A DNA stretch of 32,000 nt, taken from contig JAXLZO010000001.1 of NCBI GenBank assembly GCA_046350815.1, positions 120,001-152,000 on the forward strand. Direction: 5' to 3'. Under the pieces are notes generated by a model. That model saw only the letters and a program-made list of their open reading frames with translations, was not told the DNA's origin and ran no database searches. Of the stretch, positions 5,229-20,347 are shown piece by piece. Every line of letters starts with the position of its first letter. Within the stretch, counting starts at the first letter, position 1. This DNA is from Candidatus Saccharimonadota bacterium (GTDB taxonomy: Bacteria > Patescibacteriota > Gracilibacteria > BD1-5 > UBA2023). The position numbers and the translations under genes are program-made.

Positions 5229-6707
5229 ATGACTCTCTATCAAAAATACCGTTCAAGAACATTCTCCGAAATCGTCGGACAAGAGTTTGCAAAACGAGCA
5301 CTTCCCTACGCACTCTTAAACAATAAGCTTGTCTCAAGCTATCTGTTTTGTGGTCCACGTGGTACCGGAAAAACATCAACCGCTCGTATTCTTGCAAAAT
5401 CGATACAATGTCTGCATCTCTCAGAAAATGGAAATCCATGTCTCACCTGTAGTCACTGTATTGGACATCAAGAAGGTTCATTTATCGATACGGTCGAGCT
5501 TGATGCCGCCTCCAACAATAGTGTTGATGATATACGATCTATTATCGATCATGCGGAGTTCATGCCAAGTGTTGGAAAATACAAAGTCTACATTATCGAT
5601 GAGGTGCATATGCTCTCAGGAAGTGCATTCAATGCATTTCTCAAGATTCTCGAAGAACCTCCAGCTCATGTCAAATTCTTACTCGCAACGACAGAACCAC
5701 ACAAACTCCCAGAGACGATCATATCTCGAGTGCAGAGATTTGAATTTCGAAAATTCTCACGCCAAGAAATCATTGACCATCTTACATTTATTGCATCACA
5801 GGAATGAATCACTACCAATCAGGAATGACTGGAACTCATAGCACGTCTGAGTGATGGTGGTATGCGAGATGCCATATCGATATTTGAGCAATATAGTATC
5901 ATGTGATCGCTCGATACTGAGGCGATTCACCAAGGCTTTGGCACCGTCAAATGAAGTGTTCTCAATGAACTCACGAATACCTATATCAAACGAAATATTG
6001 TTGAATACCAATCACTCGTCACGAAAAATGTCGTGAATTCAAAGCGACTCATCGAAGATTGGATCGAATATTGCAGTAAAATACTTCGCTCAAATCCAAA
6101 TAAAACCGTAACAAATGAAGTGATCAATCTTGCTGCGGATCTCATCCGAGCAAATTTGAGACTCAAGCAAATCCCATTCAGCCAACTTCCACTTGAACTC
6201 CTTATTCAAGAACGATGCTTTGGGAAAAATGATGGAACTATAGTTCCGGTTGCCCCATCAGGAAATAGCATATGAACAAGTAACTCTCAGCAGATCCCTC
6301 AAAAAATCGAACCAACAGAGCAACAAGAAACTATAAAAAATATGAACGAGAAGAACATAGAACCGATAAAAAATCCTCCTGTATCAACAGAAATATTATC
6401 CAACGAAGAAAAAAGGGCTCCTGTCCGAGATTTCAGTGTTATGGAATTTATTCGTTTCATCGATAACTATGAGAGTGTTCATCCAACACTGAAAGCAATC
6501 ATGAAAAAAACAACATTCACCTTTCATGACAAGAAACTCGCTATTTCTCACGCTAACAAACTCGAATACAACAAACTCGAAGAACCAAGGAACAACGCGC
6601 TTCTCAAACAAATACTCGATGAATTTATGGGAGTATCTACTGAACTAGAAATTATATTTCTCTCAAAAGGAAAGATCAACCCAAATATCGCAAATGATAT
6701 TTTCTAA
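5229..6707 (+). CDS. dnaX: DNA polymerase III subunit gamma/tau
   Basis: It has a Walker A motif (GPRGTGKTS), a Cys zinc module (CLTCSHC), DEVHML and the sensor SRVQRFEF. ORF pieces 5175..5807, 6033..6275 and 6342..6707 share a frame across 5 TGA. Confidence 0.9.
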
Positions 6708-6735
6708 CTCACCACAATCCACCCCGGCTTCACCA

Positions 6736-6851
6736 CCCCTCAAGAGGGGAAGAATATAGAATACAACTCCCCCTCAACGAGGGGAAAAACGAGCTTTCGA
6801 GTAGGGGAAGTCCGTATTCTATCATCCTGAATTCATTTCAGGATCTACTAT
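6736..6851. repeat. intergenic nest of short palindromic modules
   Basis: Hairpins cccctc-aa-gagggg (6736-6749), cccctc-aac-gagggg (6770-6784) and atcctgaa-ttcat-ttcaggat plus ctactat (6824-6851). The same modules recur at 12501-12976. Confidence 0.8.
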
Positions 6852-6906
6852 GATCTATCAAGATAGATACACATCTTCATGAGAATAATAACAGTACCAT
6901 CCTAGT

Positions 6907-9996: not shown

Positions 9997-10034
9997 ATAT
10001 AAAATTCCTCTCAGATCTGAGAGGAATTTTATAT
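9997..10034 (+). terminator. rho-independent terminator
   Basis: Perfect 38-nt palindrome atataaaattcctctcaga|tctgagaggaattttatat. Confidence 0.8.
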
Positions 10035-10156
10035 TTGAATGAATATAGGATCAATGAGCAAGTGAATCTTGGCAATATCCGACACTTTATAAGGGATTTA
10101 TATTGACATGTATGAGCTCTATCATATGATTTCCGCATATTTCTTTTGTTTCTCCT

Positions 10157-10882
10157 ATGCAACATCGTCTTCATATGATACTTGCATCAGTAGTGTTCAT
10201 CGCATCCATCGCGCCAAGCACTTCATTTGCGACTGCGTATCCTGAAATCAACTGTGCAACACAGAAGGCTTTTGAGTCCAATAGTTGTGATCAATGTTTT
10301 GATGGAGGTACTATCAAGGCAGGTGACACACTTGGTCGCCTCATTGACACGTGGACAAATCGTGGATCCAACGATCAAATAGCATACAAAGACGAGCAAA
10401 AATGGCCAGATGTTGTGAATATTGGCGGATCAAACACACTCTGGAGTATGAATCCAAAAGATCCAAACGAATTTTGGACCTATGGAAAATGAGTTATCTG
10501 GACCAAGGCTCCAGCAGCAAGTGGATCAGTGGCACGAGATCAATTTATTCTTGGACCAGGAAAGAATGTTAGCTTCATCGAGGCAGATGCACTCGGATCA
10601 ACCTATACACTCGTCTCGACTGACAAGAAAAATGGAGAGCTTATCGGTCTTGCAAAATTCCCAGTTGTCTATCGCGAGACCGATGCATTCGGAAAAGAAG
10701 GAGCTGCGGATACGCACTACGAATGTGTGGCATACAAAGCACCAGTCATTGCAACAACTCCAAAGCCAATACCACCAAAAGCAACTCAAACACAGACAGG
10801 ACCTCAGGAAGTTATCCTTGTTATCGCAGCCCTCCTCCTCGGACTCCTCACGGTACTCGTTGTAAAGAAGAAATCAATCTAA
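10157..10882 (+). CDS. secreted protein with a C-terminal membrane anchor (sorting-signal-like)
   Basis: It has a signal peptide (SFA|TA). ORF pieces 10157..10492 and 10529..10882 share a frame across one TGA. The C-terminus reads TQTGPQE, then a 20-residue hydrophobic stretch, then KKKSI. Confidence 0.7.
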
Positions 10883-10884
10883 TA

Positions 10885-10918
10885 AAAATAACTTTTACCT
10901 ATAGGTAAAAGTTATTTT
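10885..10918 (+). terminator. rho-independent terminator
   Basis: aaaataacttttacc tat aggtaaaagttatttt. Confidence 0.8.
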
Positions 10919-10963
10919 CTCATACTAATTAGATTTTCACTTTAGCATCTTACAATTCAAAAA

Positions 10964-11371
10964 ATGACAAAACAAATCTTTATCAATCTAGCAGTCAAAG
11001 ACCTAAAAAAATCTATGGATTTTTATACTGCGCTCGGCTTTACGAACAATCCTCAATTTTCGGATGATAGTGGAAAATGTATGGTTTGGGGTGATAATAT
11101 TTTTGTCATGCTCTTAACTCACGAAAAGTTCGCAAACTTTGCAACCAAACCCATTGCCGATACAAAATCAAATGTAGCAGCACTTTTTTCACTATCAACT
11201 GACAGTGTAGACGAAGTAAACACTATTGTAACAAATGGGCTCAAAGCTGGTGGGATAGAACCAAGCGAAATGCGAGATTATGGATTTATGCAACAGAGAA
11301 CGATTGAAGACTTTGACGGACACGCTTGGGAGATTTTCTATATGGATATTTCAAAATTTCCGAAAGAATAA
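10964..11371 (+). CDS. VOC (glyoxalase/bleomycin-resistance) family protein
   Basis: 135 aa. The N-terminus is INLAVKDLKKSMDFYTALGF and the C-terminus is FMQQRTIEDFDGHAWEIFYMD, both typical of small VOC proteins. Confidence 0.8.
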   Translation: MTKQIFINLAVKDLKKSMDFYTALGFTNNPQFSDDSGKCMVWGDNIFVMLLTHEKFANFATKPIADTKSNVAALFSLSTDSVDEVNTIVTNGLKAGGIEPSEMRDYGFMQQRTIEDFDGHAWEIFYMDISKFPKE

Positions 11372-11381
11372 CCGACAATAT

Positions 11382-11409
11382 AAAAACCGCATCGTACGAT
11401 GCGGTTTTT
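11382..11409. terminator. bidirectional terminator
   Basis: aaaaaccgcatcg ta cgatgcggttttt lies between convergent genes. Confidence 0.8.
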
Positions 11410-11430
11410 ATATTCAGCACGAAATCACAT

Positions 11431-11742
11431 CTAAGAAATATTCCCACGAACCAGAGTACGAACTCTCTCAATCAGAAAAGTCGTCTCCTCAACATGATGC
11501 TGCTCGAGTCGATTGTAACGCTCCTCCCAAGAAAGAGTTTCATCATCACGATAGCGAGCAACTCGAATCCAACCAAATGTTTCCAATATTTTCTGAGCTT
11601 CCAGTGGAGTCAAGGATTGATCGACAGGAAGAGAATCGAGAATATGTGCTACGAGCAACTGAAAAAACTCTGGATTTTCTTCTTGAAATTGAGTAATTTT
11701 TGAAAGATCGGGGGCATTAGATGATGGAAGATTCTCTGACAT
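11431..11742 (-). CDS. hypothetical protein (103 aa)
   Basis: An intact ORF in the track, co-oriented with the next gene. I recognise no family. Confidence 0.5.
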   Translation of the reverse strand: MSENLPSSNAPDLSKITQFQEENPEFFQLLVAHILDSLPVDQSLTPLEAQKILETFGWIRVARYRDDETLSWEERYNRLEQHHVEETTFLIERVRTLVRGNIS

Positions 11743-11786
11743 GGAAAATATTTTAGTCTAAAGAAGGTAATACTTTAGATGACGTG

Positions 11787-12413
11787 TTAAAGATGTTTGC
11801 GTTTATCTAATAAAGATGATGCTATATGACTAACCTCTTTCCGTTTGAGCCCCCTATCTATAATTGTATTCACAATATTACGTGTATATATATGTTTACT
11901 TGGCAAAAGAAGCTGAAGGCTTTCAATTTGCCCCTCATGTTTTTTATTTCTTCCATAACGAAAATAGTCCTTTAGATTTTTAAGTAGCCTATTATCAATT
12001 CACATTAAATCAGCCTGATAAATCAAACCAGCATCTCTATATTTTCCATAAACGCGTATAAAGAAATCATAAGAAGTTTCATTTTGTGAGTTGTACGGAT
12101 CAAATTTCTCAATATCCCTAAATCACAACTTAATATTCTCCAATTCTTGCTCCAGCGGATCCATCACAAGACCATATTTATTCTTCCGCGGTTCGGTAAG
12201 AATTTGTTCTTTGATTTGCTCTTCTGAGAGCACTGGGATGATAGGATTCTTTCCTTTCGTAAGGACAGCTTTCACCTTCGGGGCAATCGTTGCGAATATC
12301 TCCGGATGAAGCTCACGAAACCGAACAAGAGCTTCAAGATTCGCAAGATGTTGCTGTGCTTCTTGAGTGATTTCTTGATCTGATTCTCAAAATGATTTTT
12401 GTACTTCAGACAT
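11787..12413 (-). CDS. hypothetical protein (208 aa)
   Basis: ATG at 12413 (MSEVQKSF...). The frame stays open through 3 TGA to TAA 11787-11789. The standard-code track misses this gene. Confidence 0.5.
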
Positions 12414-12561
12414 ATTACTTCTAGGAAAAATATATCATACTCATAGTTCTATTTCGTCAATACAATTGAGGAAGTCAAGAGTGAGTTTTGTCTTGGAGCA
12501 ACTCCCCTTAACTCCCTCAACGAGGAGAAACGAGAAAGAGATAGATATTCTAGATTATTAT

Positions 12562-12644
12562 CCCCCTGATAAGGGGTCAGATTTATCAATCCAGTGAGCG
12601 ACACAGTCGTCGTGAGTCGGGGAATGAAAGGGGGTTTGTATCCC
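12562..12644 (+). ncRNA. ~80-nt structured repeat module, copy A (function unknown)
   Basis: It aligns with copies at 12904-12976 and 26756-26835. The internal 5-bp hairpin (12597-12612) differs from the other copies by compensatory changes. The ends, gataagggg and gggggtttgtat, match the inverted repeats of the miaB cassette. Confidence 0.45.
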
Positions 12645-12903
12645 TAAGATAGAAAGGTCGGCTACAGGCAATACAGTGAGGCACACAAACGTACCATATC
12701 GTAAATCTTTGGTTCTTGAAATTCCATGAGAATACCTTAAATATAAAGGATTCTCCATATGATCGAAATGATAAAAACCGTCATCCTGAACTTGATTCAG
12801 GATCTACTATCCATTCAGAAGATTCCCGTCTACACGGGAATGACAACATTTATCATTCCAAAGAACACATGAAAGTTGCAGAGTTCAGCTAAATGAACTT
12901 ATT

Positions 12904-12976
12904 CCCTCTCGTTGAGGGCAAGGTTCACCAGTCCAGTAAATCGCATAGACGCGATGAGTCGGGGGTTAGGGGGAGC
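12904..12976 (+). ncRNA. structured repeat module, copy B
   Basis: ccagtaaatcgcatagacgcgatgagtcggg matches the core of copy C; its flanks have diverged. Confidence 0.4.
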
Positions 12977-12999
12977 TACCGAATCATCTCTTTCACCGA

Positions 13000-15423: not shown

Positions 15424-15813
15424 ATGTTTCAGATATTTAAGAAAAAATCTTCTCTTCATATTCCTTTTCTTAATGGAGAAAGCACGAACGTTTCAGAAGT
15501 AGAAAGTCTACGTACCAAAGAGAGAATTTTTCTCACGTGGGCAATCATTGCCACACTACTTCTCCTACTCGTGGGTGCTGTGATTGGTTTTTTCTACCTC
15601 AAAAATCACGTATTCGAGCTCGGAGTGAAAGCATGAGAACAAGCATCCTATAAACGCCTCTATACATCTGTACAAGATGCTGGATGTCGACCAATCGATA
15701 TTAGTGCACCGGAGGGGTCGGCACAATGAGCAAAGGTATCGCTCCTGAATATGGCGTGCTTTATGCAACCACAGAGATCAAATAGCTGAACTATCATAAG
15801 AAATGGGCGATAG
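15424..15813 (+). CDS. small single-pass membrane protein, last gene of the pilin cluster
   Basis: ATG at 15424 and TM helix WAIIATLLLLLVGAVIGFFYL. It has 3 in-frame TGA and stops at TAG 15811-15813, overlapping the recJ start. Confidence 0.5.
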
Positions 15814-17518
15814 TAAAATTCTTTCTTCGCTCCTTGAGAAACAGTATGTACTTCTACAAGAAGATAATCAATCAATAGAACATCTTCTTCTCACTCATCG
15901 TAATCTTCCTACGGATCTTCTCTCGCAGGAAGATTTTCTCCATCCACAATTTCATCATCTTCATGATCCATACCTGTTTCCTCAGATGCAAGAGGCGGTT
16001 GATAGAATCCTCAAGGCACGTGATAATTATGAACGGATAGTGATATTTGGTGATTACGATGTTGATGGAGTATCATCCACCGCTCTCCTAGTGAAATTTC
16101 TCACACAGATCGGATGTGAGGTCTCATACCGACTTCCTCATAGAGTGAAAGATGGGTATGGATTAAAAGCATATTTTATCGATGAACTCAAATCAAAAGA
16201 TGTATCTCTCGTGATCACAGTAGACTGCTGAACTCGTGACATTGACGTGATCAATCATGCTCATTCCATCGGCGTTGACGTTATCGTGACAGACCACCAT
16301 GCAGTTCCACACACCATACCAGAACATGCAATTGCCTTACTCAATCCGAAGATTCCGGATACTACCTATCCTTTTTCATCACTTTCAGGATCATGAGTAG
16401 CATTCAAGTTGCTGCATGCACTGACGATAGCACTCGAAAAAAACACAAAAAAACAAGAAGAAATACTCAGACAATACATCGATATTGCAACACTTGGTAC
16501 CATTGCTGACTGTATGCCACTCATCGGCGAAAATCGTATCATTGCTACACTCGGACTCAGAGAGCTCAGACGATCTGGATCAATCGGAATTCGTAAACTC
16601 CTCGAGGGCAAAGATCCACATGAAAAAGATGGAGATATTGTAGGATTTCATATCGGACCACGTATTAATGCTGCTGGTCGTATGGATACACCATATACCG
16701 CCCTCTCATTACTCCTCGCCGGTGAGTCCCGGATCGATCCTATCGTGGCAGAAATCGAGATGCTCAATACTTCACGCCGTGACGAGACGAAATTTGCCAC
16801 CGAACGAGCACTCGAAGAAATGGATGTTTCTGGAGAGATTCTCTGGTATGCAAAAGACGACATCGAACATGGCATCATTGGACTTATCGCAGGAAAGTTA
16901 GCAAATGATTTTTCCAAGGTATCGATCGTCCTCAAGGGTGAATGAGAAAAGCTCGTCGCATCGGCACGAAGCGGTGGAGTATGTGATCTCATGGAGCTTC
17001 TCACTCCATCTGCCCATCTCTTCATTGCCTATGGTGGTCATCGCGAAGCAGCAGGATTTAGCGTGAACAAAGCAAAAAGTGACGAGCTCTATAAGTCACT
17101 CTGTGCAACCTATCGCGAGATAGAGAAAAAAGGAGACCAAAAAACTTCATCGAAAATTACAGCCATAGACAAAATCCTCAGTGAAGAATATTTAACACTC
17201 GATTTTTATGAGCAAGTCATGCAACTTGGTCCATATGGAGTATGATTTCCAAAACCAATATTCGGAGTGGAAGTCGATCTGCGAGAAATGCAAGATCTTG
17301 GTTCATCGTGAGAGCATATATCTTTTATTCTGAAAAAATCCAAGAAATTCGAAGAGCAAGTCAAAGCAGTTGGATTTAGTATGCGAGGTCTGATTCCCAA
17401 TAATCAAGATCAAAAAGCACTTTTGATAGGTGAACTCACCAAAAACGTCTGGAACGATCGAGTAAGTCTTCAGTTTATGATACGAGATATTATTTTGTGT
17501 GACAGTGTATGAAGCTAA
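15803..17518 (+). CDS. recJ: single-stranded-DNA-specific exonuclease RecJ
   Basis: DHH motifs are present (IFGDYDVDGVSS, ITVDCG with G encoded by TGA, VTDHH) along with the DHHA1 motif GGHREAAGF. ORF pieces 15803.., 16409.. and 16991.. share one frame. Confidence 0.92.
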
Positions 17519-19539
17519 TAAAACCACAAACATTCTACATCAAGACATTCGGCTGTGCGATGAACTATGCGGATAGTGAGAAAGTAAATATGATCCTCAT
17601 GTCCGCATGACTTCGCAAGGTAGTTGATCCAACCAAAGCTGATGTTGTTATTCTGAACACCTGTAGCGTCCGTCAAAAGGGCGAAGATAAAGTGTTCGGA
17701 TTTATGAGGGAACTCGAAAAATTCCACAAATGATCAGATAAAATGCCTCTTTTCGGAGTTACTGGCTGTATGGTGCGAAAAAGTGGCATCGCACGAAAAC
17801 ATCTTAAAAGACTCAAAGATATCGAAGATATCAAACGTTCTGGTGTACAAAAGATTACACGAGTAGATTCAAGTGATGCCCTCGAAAACTATGATGATGA
17901 GCTTTTTCTGCGAACACAACTCATTGATTTTACCTTTCGTATTGAGGAGGTAAGCTATCTCACTCAGATTCTTACACGAATTTGTGGTGAACATATAGGA
18001 AACGATGCAAAATTCAACGAATATCTCCAAGTCAAACAACTCCAAGAAAATCCCGCTTCTGCTAATATCATCATCCAGACTGGTTGTGATAATTTTTGTA
18101 GTTTTTGTATTGTCCCATATACCCGCGGCCGAGAGATCTCACGTTCTCAAGATGAAATTGTACAGGAAGTGAAACGCGTGGTAAGCGAGTGAACAAAAGA
18201 AATCACCCTCCTCGGACAGAATGTAAACAGCTATGGAAAAGAAACCAAGAAAAAACTCTGGAACGAAGAAGAAATGCGATGGGTACAAAATATAGCCTCC
18301 TTTGGGAAAGAAGGTGCTGAAAACGAGAAACAAAATGGAACTCTTCCCTTCTTGAGGGGTGCCGAAGGCGGGGTGGATGTATTAAATCCCCATGATAAGG
18401 GGGACATAGGGGGTTTGTATCCACAAAACATATCCCACGAAAAATACATCCCATACAATCCAGACCTAAAAGAACGAGCTCAAGAACTACGAAAAAATCA
18501 AACTCTATTCGAGAAAATATTCTGGTATCAAATTCTCAAACAAGGAGAACTTTGACAGCACAAATTCACGAGACAAAAGCCACTCATCGATTTTATTGTT
18601 GATTTTTATTGTTCAGAACTTTCTCTTGTAATAGAAATCGATGGAGATAGTCATGCCAATCAAGAAAAATACGATATTGAGAGAACACAAAAACTTGAAT
18701 CATATGGATTGAGAGTTATTCGATACTCAAATAGAGAAGTCCAGAACAACCCAGAAGGCGTATATGAGGATTTACTCATCAAAATACAAACCCCCCTTAA
18801 TCCCCCCTTATCAGGTGGGCACACACATTTTACCACTCCATTTCGTGATCTTCTCGATGCTCTCGGGGAGATAGGCTGACTTGATCGTATTCGATTTACG
18901 AGCTCCAATCCTCATGATATGACCAAAGATATTCTCGATGCTCATTTTGAGGTACCATGAATGTGTCCATATCTTCACTTTGCACTCCAATCAGGATCGA
19001 ACAGTATGCTCAAGAGGATGAATCGTAAGCATACCTATGAAGATTTCAAAACACAGGTTGAGTATCTCCGATCTCAGGATCCACTCTTCTCAATATCCAC
19101 AGATATAATTGTCGGATTTCCATGAGAGACAGAAGAAGAATTCCAGGCAACGGTCACAGCAATGCAGGAGTGCCAATTCGACTTTGCTTATATTGCTCGC
19201 TACTCTCCACGCTCAGGAACGAGAGCGACAGATACAATGGAAGATGATATCTCAGCAGAGGAAAAAGCACGTCGATGGTCTATCCTCAACGATATTCTCA
19301 GAGAAACCGTTGCAAACCGATCAAGACTCCTTATCGGAAGAGAAGAAGAAATACTCATCAGTGGAGAAGATGGAGATGGAAATCTCTGTGGCCGTACTCG
19401 CAATTTCAAGGAAGTCTACATTCCAAATACCCACTTGATAAAGGGGGGTAGGGGGGATTTTGCTCCTATCAAAAAAGGCGATCTCGTGAAAGTAAAGATT
19501 ATTGAGCTGGATGGATGGGTATTGAGAGGGAAATTTTAA
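17509..19539 (+). CDS. miaB: tRNA methylthiotransferase MiaB-like (radical SAM + TRAM) carrying an in-frame DUF559 insertion
   Basis: Motifs: N-terminal [16 protein letters not shown], the radical-SAM [37 protein letters not shown], and GFPGET with G encoded by TGA 19123-19125. A TRAM-like C-terminus follows. All pieces (17509, 17743, 18274, 19162) share one frame. Confidence 0.85.
18394..18813 (+). mobile_element. inverted-repeat-bounded DUF559 (Vsr/PD-(D/E)XK-like endonuclease) cassette inside miaB
   Basis: The left repeat is gataagggggacatagggggtttgtat (18394-18420). The right repeat is atacaaaccccccttaatccccccttatc (18784-18812), which is its reverse complement with 2 indels. Between them lies [28 protein letters not shown]...[21 protein letters not shown]...RVIRYSN, the DUF559 pattern. 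Confidence 0.75.
19436..19460 (+). repeat. solo copy of the cassette inverted-repeat sequence, in frame in the miaB TRAM region
   Basis: gataaaggggggtaggggggatttt compared with the left repeat gataagggggacatagggggtttgtat. It translates as LIKGGRGDF. Confidence 0.7.
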
Positions 19540-19576: not shown

Positions 19577-20347
19577 ATGAAACCTATATACTATCTCAAT
19601 AGTTCACTCGCTATCTCATACGTAAGTCAATCTCAAAAAATCAGAGTAATGACTGAATCATGGGTGGAGGAGTATTGATTTTGTCCAAATTGTGGAAATC
19701 CTCTTATAAAATCTCGGGCAAATAATCCTGTTGGCGATTTTACATGTTCAAAATGTAATGAGGAGTATGAGTTAAAATCAAAGCATTTCTCTTTTGGTAA
19801 AAAAATTACTGACGGAGCTTATGGAACCATGATTAGTAGATTAAATTCAGATACGAATCCAAGTTTTTTCGGACTCACATACTCAAAAAATCTTGAAATT
19901 ACAAACCTTTTTGTGATACCAAAATTTTATTTCACTCATAAAATTATCGAAAAAAGAAAACCACTTAGCTCGACCGCGAGACGAGCGGGATGGACTGGAT
20001 GCAATATTCTTCTAAACCTTATTCCAGAAAGTGGGAAAATATACTATATACAAAATGGAGAATCTCGTGACAAATCAGATGTACTTAAGGATTGGAAGAA
20101 AACACATTTTCTTTCTGAAGAATCAAATCTGAGTGCAAAATGATGGTTAATTGACGTTATATGATGCATTGAACTACTTGGGAAGCAAGAATTTACCCTT
20201 CAAGATTTATATAACTTCACATGAATACTCCAAGAAAAATATCAAGGAAACAATAACATTGAAGCAAAAATCCGACAACAACTCCAGTTATTACGAAATA
20301 ATGGCTATTTGGACTTCATAGGAAGAGGAAAATATAAACTTTGTTAA
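19577..20347 (+). CDS. DpnI-like methyl-directed (GmATC) type IIM restriction endonuclease
   Basis: These motifs match my memory of the DpnI/Dam-replacing family: SQKIRVMTESWV, CPNCG...DFTCSKCNEEYELKSK, DGAYGTMISRL, PLSSTARRAGWTGCNI, and the C-terminal IRQQLQLLRNNGYLDFIGRGKYK. There are 4 in-frame TGA. Confidence 0.82.

Follow-up and report, generated by a model that had tools for sequence, protein, structure and literature searches.

Rickettsia palindromic elements (RPEs) are families of non-coding palindromic repeats, 100-150 bp in length, which carry no gene and are confined to Rickettsia; they were reportedly described as in-frame repeats by Ogata et al. in 2000. In fungal mitochondria, in-frame insertions of LAGLIDADG homing endonuclease genes are said to have been found in rps3 by Sethuraman et al. 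in 2009. RPEs and other in-frame repeats resembling miniature inverted-repeat transposable elements have been reviewed (PMC10969869). REPIN/RAYT systems have an architecture in which an enzyme gene lies between inverted short hairpin repeats, with solo and doublet copies scattered (PMC3116915, PMC3337134). Vsr, DUF559 and the homing endonuclease I-Bth0305I fall into one PD-(D/E)XK group (PMC3424549; PMC3239194), and I-Bth0305I, which resides in a self-splicing group I intron or a split intein, displays N-terminal NUMOD DNA-binding modules and an EDxHD motif (PMC3239194). Here we analyze a 32,000-nucleotide stretch of DNA (the window) from a Candidatus Saccharimonadota bacterium of the Gracilibacteria lineage (contig JAXLZO010000001.1, positions 120,001 to 152,000), in which miaB, encoding a tRNA-modifying radical-SAM enzyme (tRNA-i6A37 methylthiotransferase), carries an in-frame insert with a DUF559 nuclease domain between inverted hairpin repeats.

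The insert is a discrete repeat-bounded unit, which comes and goes at a fixed codon position of miaB and swaps its cargo independently of host divergence. It is translated in frame and retains a nuclease-type domain under selection, on tethers predicted to be disordered. With somewhat more confidence than doubt, we interpret it as a selfish DUF559 cassette, translated through with its host and bracketed by inverted hairpin-plus-G-box repeats, that spreads or is retained in a homing-like fashion; the homing-like mode is probable, and we propose a mechanism for it below. The features of the locus in the window are as follows.

17509 to 19539, forward strand: miaB coding sequence including the insert, a single open reading frame of 676 residues in genetic code 25 (TGA = Gly).
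18283 to 18831, forward strand: variable segment, residues 259-441, starting directly after the conserved Trp258 codon, as defined by alignment with the empty allele L001/P0004 and the filled allele L002.
18295 to 18317, forward strand: hairpin unit a, GCCTCCTTTGGGAAAGAAGGTGC, encoding ASFGKEGA and common to L002, L003 and L004.
18343 to 18379, forward strand: unit b, CTTCCCTTCTTGAGGGGTGCCGAAGGCGGGGTGGATG, a GC island encoding a 12-residue peptide.
18388 to 18420, forward strand: unit c, the left inverted repeat, consisting of the hairpin CCCC-ATGATAA-GGGG and the G-box AGGGGGTTTGTAT and encoding a 12-residue peptide.
18466 to 18786, forward strand: DUF559 (Vsr-like PD-(D/E)XK) nuclease domain, residues 320-426, matching Pfam PF04480 with E=1.7e-31 and containing a TGA-Gly codon at 18553.
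18784 to 18818, forward strand: right inverted repeat (unit c reversed), ATACAAACCCCCCTTAATCCCCCCTTATCAGGTGG, encoding a 12-residue peptide and aligning with the left arm with a gap.
19433 to 19462, forward strand: solo G-rich unit of the unit-c type, 30 nucleotides, CTTGATAAAGGGGGGTAGGGGGGATTTTGC, encoding a 10-residue peptide in frame in the TRAM domain.

The original prediction, made from the letters of the window alone, saw one open miaB frame without TAA or TAG and with one TGA-Gly codon in the insert, and translation with table 25 agrees with it. Seven in-frame TGA codons occur in the gene, one of them in the insert (residue 349) and one reading Gly within GFPGET, no TAA or TAG is found inside, and the terminal stop is TAA; with table 11 the gene is interrupted at the TGA codons. 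The product displays the architecture of MiaB, with UPF0004 (residues 9-93), Radical_SAM split into two stretches by DUF559 (residues 320-426), and TRAM in the Pfam search, and with CDNFCSFC and the N-terminal cluster cysteines visible in the translation. In addition, the top Foldseek matches of the model of P0001, a homologue 95% identical to the window protein, are the MiaB structures 7mjz, 7mjx and 7mjv. The start of miaB overlaps the end of recJ (15800-17518) by 10 nucleotides, and the recJ-miaB order is syntenic in the window, L001, L002 and L004.

The search with the full protein retrieved MiaB homologues of 440-820 residues, labelled Candidatus Gracilibacteria or Altimarinota, and these locate the insert with precision. 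The span from a conserved 11-residue MiaB motif to NPHD is 60-65 residues long in 81 of 121 homologues and 238 residues long in the window, and the 40 homologues with extra material all have it at one place, between the Trp of KLWNxEExxW and TPFR(E/D)LL, always as an uninterrupted in-frame open reading frame. Because 81 of the 121 homologues have a short empty site, the segment is an insertion, as had been proposed, and not an ordinary lineage-wide linker. An alignment of orthologues had been suggested as the way to define the empty site and the junctions, and an empty allele was indeed found in a syntenic close relative: P0004, the closest one (best local alignment 82% identical over 44% of the query), is carried by L001 in a recJ-miaB context like that of the window, at a DNA identity which, judged by eye from the alignment, is roughly 85%. 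The empty site (L001 or L100) reads ..AAACTCTGGAA...TGG/ACN...ACNCCATTYCG.., and where P0004 has five codons (THKDV) the window has 183, a net gain of 178; the large in-frame insertion thus stood, and its predicted size of about 185 extra codons is corrected to these figures. The assembly L002 (95% amino acid identity) carries both insertions, the main insert and the unit in TRAM, with the same junctions as the window, and since it is an independent assembly with identical junctions, an assembly chimera is excluded.

Filled and empty alleles are found at this one precise site of a conserved gene independently of host phylogeny, a distribution of the homing type. In a neighbor-joining tree of the MiaB core, filled and empty alleles, those with a HAD/NT5C domain and remnants are interleaved, and the identities of host and insert are weakly correlated (r=0.21). 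The site in the approximately 40 filled alleles is occupied by three DUF559 lineages, by a HAD/NT5C domain or by repeat-only remnants. Between the window and P0002 the MiaB core is 96% and DUF559 52% identical, between the window and P0003 the values are 91% and 40%, and the DUF559 of the window is nearer to those of hosts only 72-75% identical. At the DNA level, four MiaB genes with 91-97% identical cores were read, which hold three DUF559 lineages, each with an inverted-repeat family of its own.

Lineage A1 (window and L002): unit c on both sides.
Lineage A2 (L003): hairpins of the unit-a type on both sides.
Lineage B (L004): unit b on one side, its inverse on the other.

The sister alleles P0005 (filled) and P0045 (empty), 92% identical in DNA, give the closest view of a change of state. 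The arms of the P0005 cassette, ATTATGACCCCCCTGTCAAGGGGGG ... CCCCCCTTGACAGGGGGGCATATT, reach within about 6 nucleotides of each junction, the cassette stands in place of 18 host nucleotides (TSKDVK), and the bases adjoining the junctions are near-inverted (ATTATGA / CATATT); next to the junction there are only about 5 mismatches, and the flanks are otherwise nearly identical. A conserved linker of the T-x-K-D-V-K type is common to the empty alleles and missing in the filled ones, which argues that changes of state take place by allele replacement through the conserved miaB flanks and not by excision or random deletion. In P0098 (L097), both ends of a P0023-type cassette are kept while the nuclease and half of the right hairpin are lost, and this allele is a degeneration remnant. 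In four Gracilibacteria lineages that lie scattered (P0030, in L096 at 10001-12058, P0084, P0090 and P0093), this loop of MiaB behind the conserved Trp is occupied by the HAD/NT5C-type nucleotidase domain, which is AT-rich, about 200 residues long and devoid of G-rich repeats.

The core of the insert had been described as a complete DUF559/Vsr-like domain, and the profile search bears this out, with PF04480 matching over profile positions 3-108 of 109 at 108.8 bits against a cut-off of 20.6; the NCBIfam model PRK09767 (DUF559) also matches (E=3e-20), under its equivalog cut-off, and so does the sequence of a DUF559 structure, PDB 3hrl (E=9e-16). In the AlphaFold model of P0001 the DUF559 lobe has a restriction-endonuclease-like fold, superposing on 3hrl with a TM-score of 0.84 and a root-mean-square deviation of 2.1 A. 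The confidence of this model (predicted local-distance difference test, pLDDT) is about 90 in the lobe and below 50 in the linkers 260-310 and 430-437, and the prediction for DUF559 is thus a lobe that folds on its own and is tethered by disordered linkers, the outcome for which a structure prediction had been proposed. An active-site-type motif, VDF...E-I-D-G-x-S-H (D-F...E-x-D-G-x-x-H), is kept in nearly all of the 34 nested copies. In the comparison of the window with L002, the ratio of nonsynonymous to synonymous substitution rates (dN/dS) is 0.076 for the DUF559 core (19 synonymous and 7 nonsynonymous changes), 0.034 and 0.036 for the two parts of MiaB and 0.65 for the repeat-encoded left linker. 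Purifying selection acts on the DUF559 core in the frame of miaB, and the linker is nearly neutral; this accords with the earlier suggestion of either translation together with MiaB or selection for an open frame. The low values of both indicate that host MiaB and nuclease are functional proteins in this frame, the linker being required only to stay open.

At least three hairpin-repeat families and a nuclease are stacked in the insert, in the order unit a, unit b, unit c (the left repeat), DUF559 open reading frame and inverted unit c (the right repeat). Inverted repeats had been predicted to bound the core in near-perfect form; they are real and less perfect than this, with 28 of 35 columns identical (80%) and one 2-nucleotide gap between 18388-18420 and 18784-18818, among which two perfect cores, TGATAAGGGGG and GGGGGTTTGTAT, are found. 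The alignment of the two arms scores 20, and in 1000 shuffles the mean was 8.7 and the maximum 16 (p<0.001); the RNA duplex of the left with the right arm has a predicted energy of -45 kcal/mol. Unit c has stops in two frames (TGA and TAA/TAG) and is open in the third, which would explain why just the in-frame copies survive inside genes.

Further copies of the repeats had been recommended as a search target, and they were found in intergenic clusters of the window, in the TRAM domain and in metagenome contigs. The exact unit-c pattern is found in 11 metagenome contigs of 30-49% GC, and its peptide form, PPDKGGxGG, is found ahead of DUF559 in many phyla. L003 also has a hairpin related to unit a on the right side of a different DUF559, and L097 has one in its repeat-only remnant. 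A reverse copy of unit b is located in an intergenic region of the window (6718-6750), and the type B DUF559 of L004 lies between unit b and an inverted partner of it. Clusters of several hairpin-repeat families occupy the intergenic regions 6707-6905 and 12490-12985 of the window; their members include CCCCCTCAACGAGGGG (6769), a copy resembling unit c and interrupted by an insertion (12560-12645) and GGGGGTTAGGGGG (12961), and GTCATCCTGAACTTGATTCAGGATC is among the other hairpins. The window genome is rich in elements resembling repetitive extragenic palindromes. The solo unit in TRAM is present in L002 and absent from the empty allele L001. Units at this TRAM site occur in 18 of the 121 homologues, namely in 12 of 34 DUF559-bearing alleles and 6 of 87 others (p=2.5e-4, without phylogenetic correction), and in the window and P0005 the solo unit shares its hairpin type with the repeats around the resident DUF559, the empty sisters having neither.

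Many MiaB homologues carry short in-frame repeat-derived peptides, for example PLIRGTQGV, FVIPSEAEES and ISRLQTSSSARDDN, at sites after window residues 76-80 and 100-108, and at these sites no DUF559 was found in the 121 sequences. Two stretches of the window, 18679-18824 (the right repeat together with the 3' portion of DUF559) and 19309-19488 (around the TRAM unit), are identical or nearly identical to L002, the synonymous divergence (dS) in the remaining miaB being 0.2-0.4; this could be due to recent gene conversion or to constraint at the DNA level around the repeats. Downstream of miaB (19577-20347, forward strand) lies a gene for a DpnI-like methyl-directed restriction endonuclease (PF06044, E=2e-72, and DpnI_C). 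The downstream gene differs among the window, L001 and L002, and this flank is therefore variable.

Several known kinds of element do not account for the insert. An intein is ruled out, since no Hint or intein domain is found by Pfam in the miaB product and junction residues are missing, as had been noted from the letters alone: the first residue of the insert is Val, with Ile or Asp at this place in other alleles, and the insert ends with ...GGHTHF before Thr, with no His-Asn. A group I or group II intron, or another structured RNA, is likewise ruled out, as no Rfam family reaches its threshold anywhere in the 32-kb window and the open reading frame is uninterrupted in 40 alleles. A classical transposon would share the terminal inverted repeats, but here there is no transposase and no target-site duplication and host codons are replaced; DUF559 is the sole domain encoded in the insert according to Pfam, with no DDE, HUH, serine or tyrosine transposase, and no transposase gene lies beside any cassette examined. 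A defense-system protein was rejected because the best PADLOC matches, DpdF (E=0.005) and mREase_II (E=0.006), cover short partial stretches only, and a phage vector because no relative was found on viral contigs. Membership of the EDxHD family of I-Bth0305I was dismissed in view of the motif E-I-D-G-D-S-H and of the lack of NUMOD or any other DNA-binding Pfam domain, and an RPE proper in view of the encoded nuclease, the units of 30-40 nucleotides and a host genome of the Gracilibacteria type using code 25.

How such a cassette might be accommodated and spread can be put as follows. The cassette lies directly behind Trp258, in a surface loop of its host's radical-SAM domain; it is translated in frame with MiaB, and no splicing of RNA or protein would take place. 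MiaB would tolerate it because the one stop-free frame of the repeat ends encodes disordered linkers rich in Pro, Gly, Asp and Lys, and the nuclease, hanging as a separate lobe, would leave MiaB functional. Kept active by selection, the nuclease would most likely promote the spread and retention of its own cassette: it might introduce nicks or breaks into empty alleles or into repeat units cognate to it, whereupon recombinational repair would copy the cassette in from a filled allele serving as template, by gene conversion through the conserved miaB flanks. Loss of the nuclease would give rise to repeat-only remnants. Of these steps, we infer the nuclease activity, its target and the homing step itself, and a homing-like model is the most economical one; it fits the grouping of Vsr, DUF559 and I-Bth0305I within PD-(D/E)XK (PMC3424549, PMC3239194).

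A number of points weigh against this homing-like interpretation. The dN/dS values come from one sequence pair, the window and L002; the trees are neighbor-joining trees on protein identity, and the association tests were made without phylogenetic correction. A nuclease alone cannot explain a first-time insertion into a new gene. In P0005 and P0045 no target-site duplication or extended co-conversion tract was seen. The HAD/NT5C domain sits in the same loop without G-rich repeats, which suggests that the loop may be a permissive hotspot for any cargo. By tblastn, no second or degenerate DUF559 copy was found in the 32-kb window, the repeat cluster 12490-12985 included, and none beyond miaB in the related loci; nor was a relative found on viral contigs.

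Among the rival explanations, a relationship like that of REPINs and RAYTs is a serious one, even if we regard it as unlikely: DUF559, as a single-copy nuclease placed between two inverted repeats in the way that RAYT genes are placed between REPs, would disperse or maintain its cognate hairpin repeats genome-wide, without homing, and the location in miaB would be incidental. The solo units in the two intergenic clusters, in other genomes and in TRAM are what such a relationship would leave behind, and the same can be said of the TRAM units that match the hairpin type of the resident DUF559 in the window and P0005, with empty sisters lacking both, of the enrichment of TRAM units in DUF559-bearing alleles (uncorrected, as given above) and of the tandem unit arrays that adjoin DUF559 in L050, L054 and L032. 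However, strand-transfer chemistry is not known for a PD-(D/E)XK nuclease, and RAYTs, by contrast, belong to the HUH transposases; the presence of three DUF559 lineages at exactly one miaB codon position is left unexplained, and the TRAM enrichment could come from linkage within the gene or from shared ancestry. We find it rather improbable that DUF559 is a mere passenger, that is, a cargo kept for the benefit of the host, for example as a small repair or defense nuclease, with the repeats being moved by other machinery such as a transposase acting in trans or slippage and recombination at hairpins. Repeat-only units do enter MiaB in frame on their own (after residues 76-80, after residues 100-108 and in TRAM), an unrelated HAD/NT5C domain uses the same loop, and other guests (NUDIX, GNAT, methyltransferase, hydrolase) are present in some DUF559-bearing host proteins, all of which a passenger could accommodate. 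Against it, the association of DUF559 with repeats holds across phyla (40 of 80 loci and 0 of 80 shuffled controls), no convincing match to a defense protein was obtained (PADLOC, best E=0.005), no transposase gene was seen beside any examined cassette, and the fact that each DUF559 lineage in the four MiaB loci has its own repeat family indicates a specific partnership.

An adaptive fusion, in which the MiaB of Gracilibacteria recruited a nuclease to work with the methylthiotransferase, for example on tRNA or other RNA, and the repeats are merely linkers, is in our view very improbable. It would account for purifying selection on both host and insert in two diverged filled alleles, for the persistence of the fusion across MiaB proteins only 50-60% identical overall and for the nesting of DUF559 in MiaA (P0307), the preceding enzyme of the same pathway, yet two thirds of the close homologues have no insert, among them sister alleles at 92% nucleotide identity, the cargo is swapped among unrelated DUF559 lineages and a nucleotidase, and the cassette type recurs in more than a dozen functionally unrelated enzymes as well as in free-standing genes. 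Finally, an artefact, either an assembly chimera or the read-through of a disrupted pseudogene by the gene caller, deserves practically no credence. The data are metagenome-derived and the G-rich repeats are stop-free, such that open frames can arise passively; the junctions, however, recur in independent assemblies from different samples (L002, L003, L004), dN/dS values of 0.035 for the host and 0.076 for DUF559 are incompatible with a pseudogene, and chimera and pseudogene alike are effectively refuted on these grounds.

Returning to the homing-like cassette, the miaB case exemplifies a pattern that is widespread and involves many host genes. Free-standing relatives with the flanking peptides PPDKGGxGGY ... 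PPLSGG, which are the two strands of the unit-c hairpin in their open frames, are found in Omnitrophota, Desulfuromonadales, Zixibacteria, Nitrospirae, Trichlorobacter and others. A strong inverted repeat brackets the DUF559 open reading frame in 40 of 80 loci from GTDB genomes of many phyla and in none of 80 shuffled controls; in those loci the arms have the design of a C4-6 / loop / G4-6 hairpin followed by a short spacer and a GGGG(T)G box, the right arm often contains the stop codon of DUF559, and tandem unit arrays sometimes adjoin the gene (L050, L054, L032). A scan of the contigs of genomes with the DUF559 peptide returned only relatives from other phyla, 40-56% identical, and no Gracilibacteria miaB locus. 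Nesting in frame is frequent. In a NAD-epimerase of Bacteroidales, DUF559 sits in a loop, in frame, as read from the DNA (L066, L074, L076, L080). An exhaustive search with the DUF559 core matched 15,664 cluster representatives at E<=0.001, and the best 150 of these matches include 18 long proteins, known as predicted proteins only, with an internal or terminal DUF559 and, in most of them, unit-type linker peptides on both sides of it. Their hosts comprise RecG-like helicases, class I aminoacyl-tRNA synthetases including LeuRS, HsdS, a Mur ligase, RecJ and MiaA (P0307), together with iPGM, Eco57I-type methylases, a His_biosynth protein (HisA/HisF-type), Sua5, RNase HII and riboflavin kinase (RibF). 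Some of the 18 carry DUF559 at one end, so upstream read-through is possible there. The counts of architectures exclude a word-index search made with the insert only, whose output missed the MiaB-nested homologues.

Two side observations concern the same proteins and genomes. In P0331, P0337, P0342, P0339 and P0377 (iPGM, LeuRS and another class I aminoacyl-tRNA synthetase), further guest domains, namely NUDIX, DUF218, GNAT, methyltransferase and alpha/beta hydrolase, are nested beside DUF559, and the proteins reach 800-1330 residues. In genomes using the standard code, that is, L035 (Chitinibacter sp.), L016, L026, L036 and L062 (Flavobacteriaceae) and L082, DUF559 cassettes lie immediately upstream of miaA, rnpA and ispG; they are in the same frame with no stop in between, and stop-to-stop open reading frames consequently fuse DUF559 with these genes, which may reflect a true N-terminal fusion or a read-through annotation.

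The original prediction knew of no description of a DUF559 element nested in frame in a housekeeping enzyme. No account of such cassettes (DUF559, COG2852, palindromic or in-frame elements of Gracilibacteria) was found in the full-text literature searched, from which most subscription journals are absent, so that this is no proof of absence, and the miaB case turns out not to be unique, many host genes being involved. The class of cassette is apparently undescribed and combines two known kinds of element, homing-endonuclease genes and in-frame palindromic repeats. If the interpretation is correct, a testable biological role would be at hand for DUF559, a very large nuclease-like family for which our searches found a single structure, from structural genomics, and no assigned function. 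By supplying flexible linkers free of stops, selfish nuclease genes would be able to enter conserved enzymes with no need of splicing machinery, and this would offer one possible route to the large unexplained insertions in housekeeping proteins of the homologue sets compared here, which derive from Gracilibacteria-type and Bacteroidales assemblies. Moreover, permissive loops in MiaB, RecJ, LeuRS and iPGM would be seen to tolerate a guest of roughly 180 residues, a property useful for protein engineering, and annotators would have reason not to call such genes fusions or pseudogenes. Much more tentatively, we may speculate that DUF559, which ranks among the most widespread nuclease-like families, is the engine of a third way, after self-splicing introns and inteins, by which homing-type nuclease genes enter essential genes, with translatable hairpin ends as disordered linkers and the element remaining in the mature enzyme, and that it also seeds or maintains short RPE-like families of in-frame palindromic repeats across many bacterial phyla.

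In comparison with the known systems, the miaB cassette resembles RPEs in being palindromic and in frame, as had been remarked from the start, and unlike them its repeats bracket a conserved nuclease gene, here identified as PF04480, are unrelated in sequence and are made of shorter units (30-40 nucleotides). With REPIN/RAYT systems it shares a single enzyme gene flanked by inverted hairpin repeats, scattered solo copies and specific pairings between enzyme and repeat; in those systems, however, the enzyme is an HUH tyrosine transposase and the repeats are extragenic, whereas here a PD-(D/E)XK nuclease enters coding sequence in frame. Like the insertions in rps3, it consists of a homing-type nuclease open reading frame fused in frame within a host protein gene with no splicing, but the nuclease family is different, and the rps3 case is organellar, devoid of flanking hairpin repeats and confined to a single host gene. 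Inteins with homing-endonuclease domains are likewise in-frame, nuclease-bearing insertions in conserved enzymes that are translated with the host; in contrast to them, the miaB insert has no Hint domain, junction nucleophiles or His-Asn, and is predicted to stay in the mature protein. The comparison with I-Bth0305I links the cassette to the PD-(D/E)XK group, to residence inside a conserved housekeeping gene, to presence or absence at a precise site and to a presumed spread by break-induced recombination, while, unlike I-Bth0305I, the cassette in miaB dispenses with intron and intein, is translated together with its host, displays an E-x-D-G-x-x-H motif and is delimited by hairpin inverted repeats.

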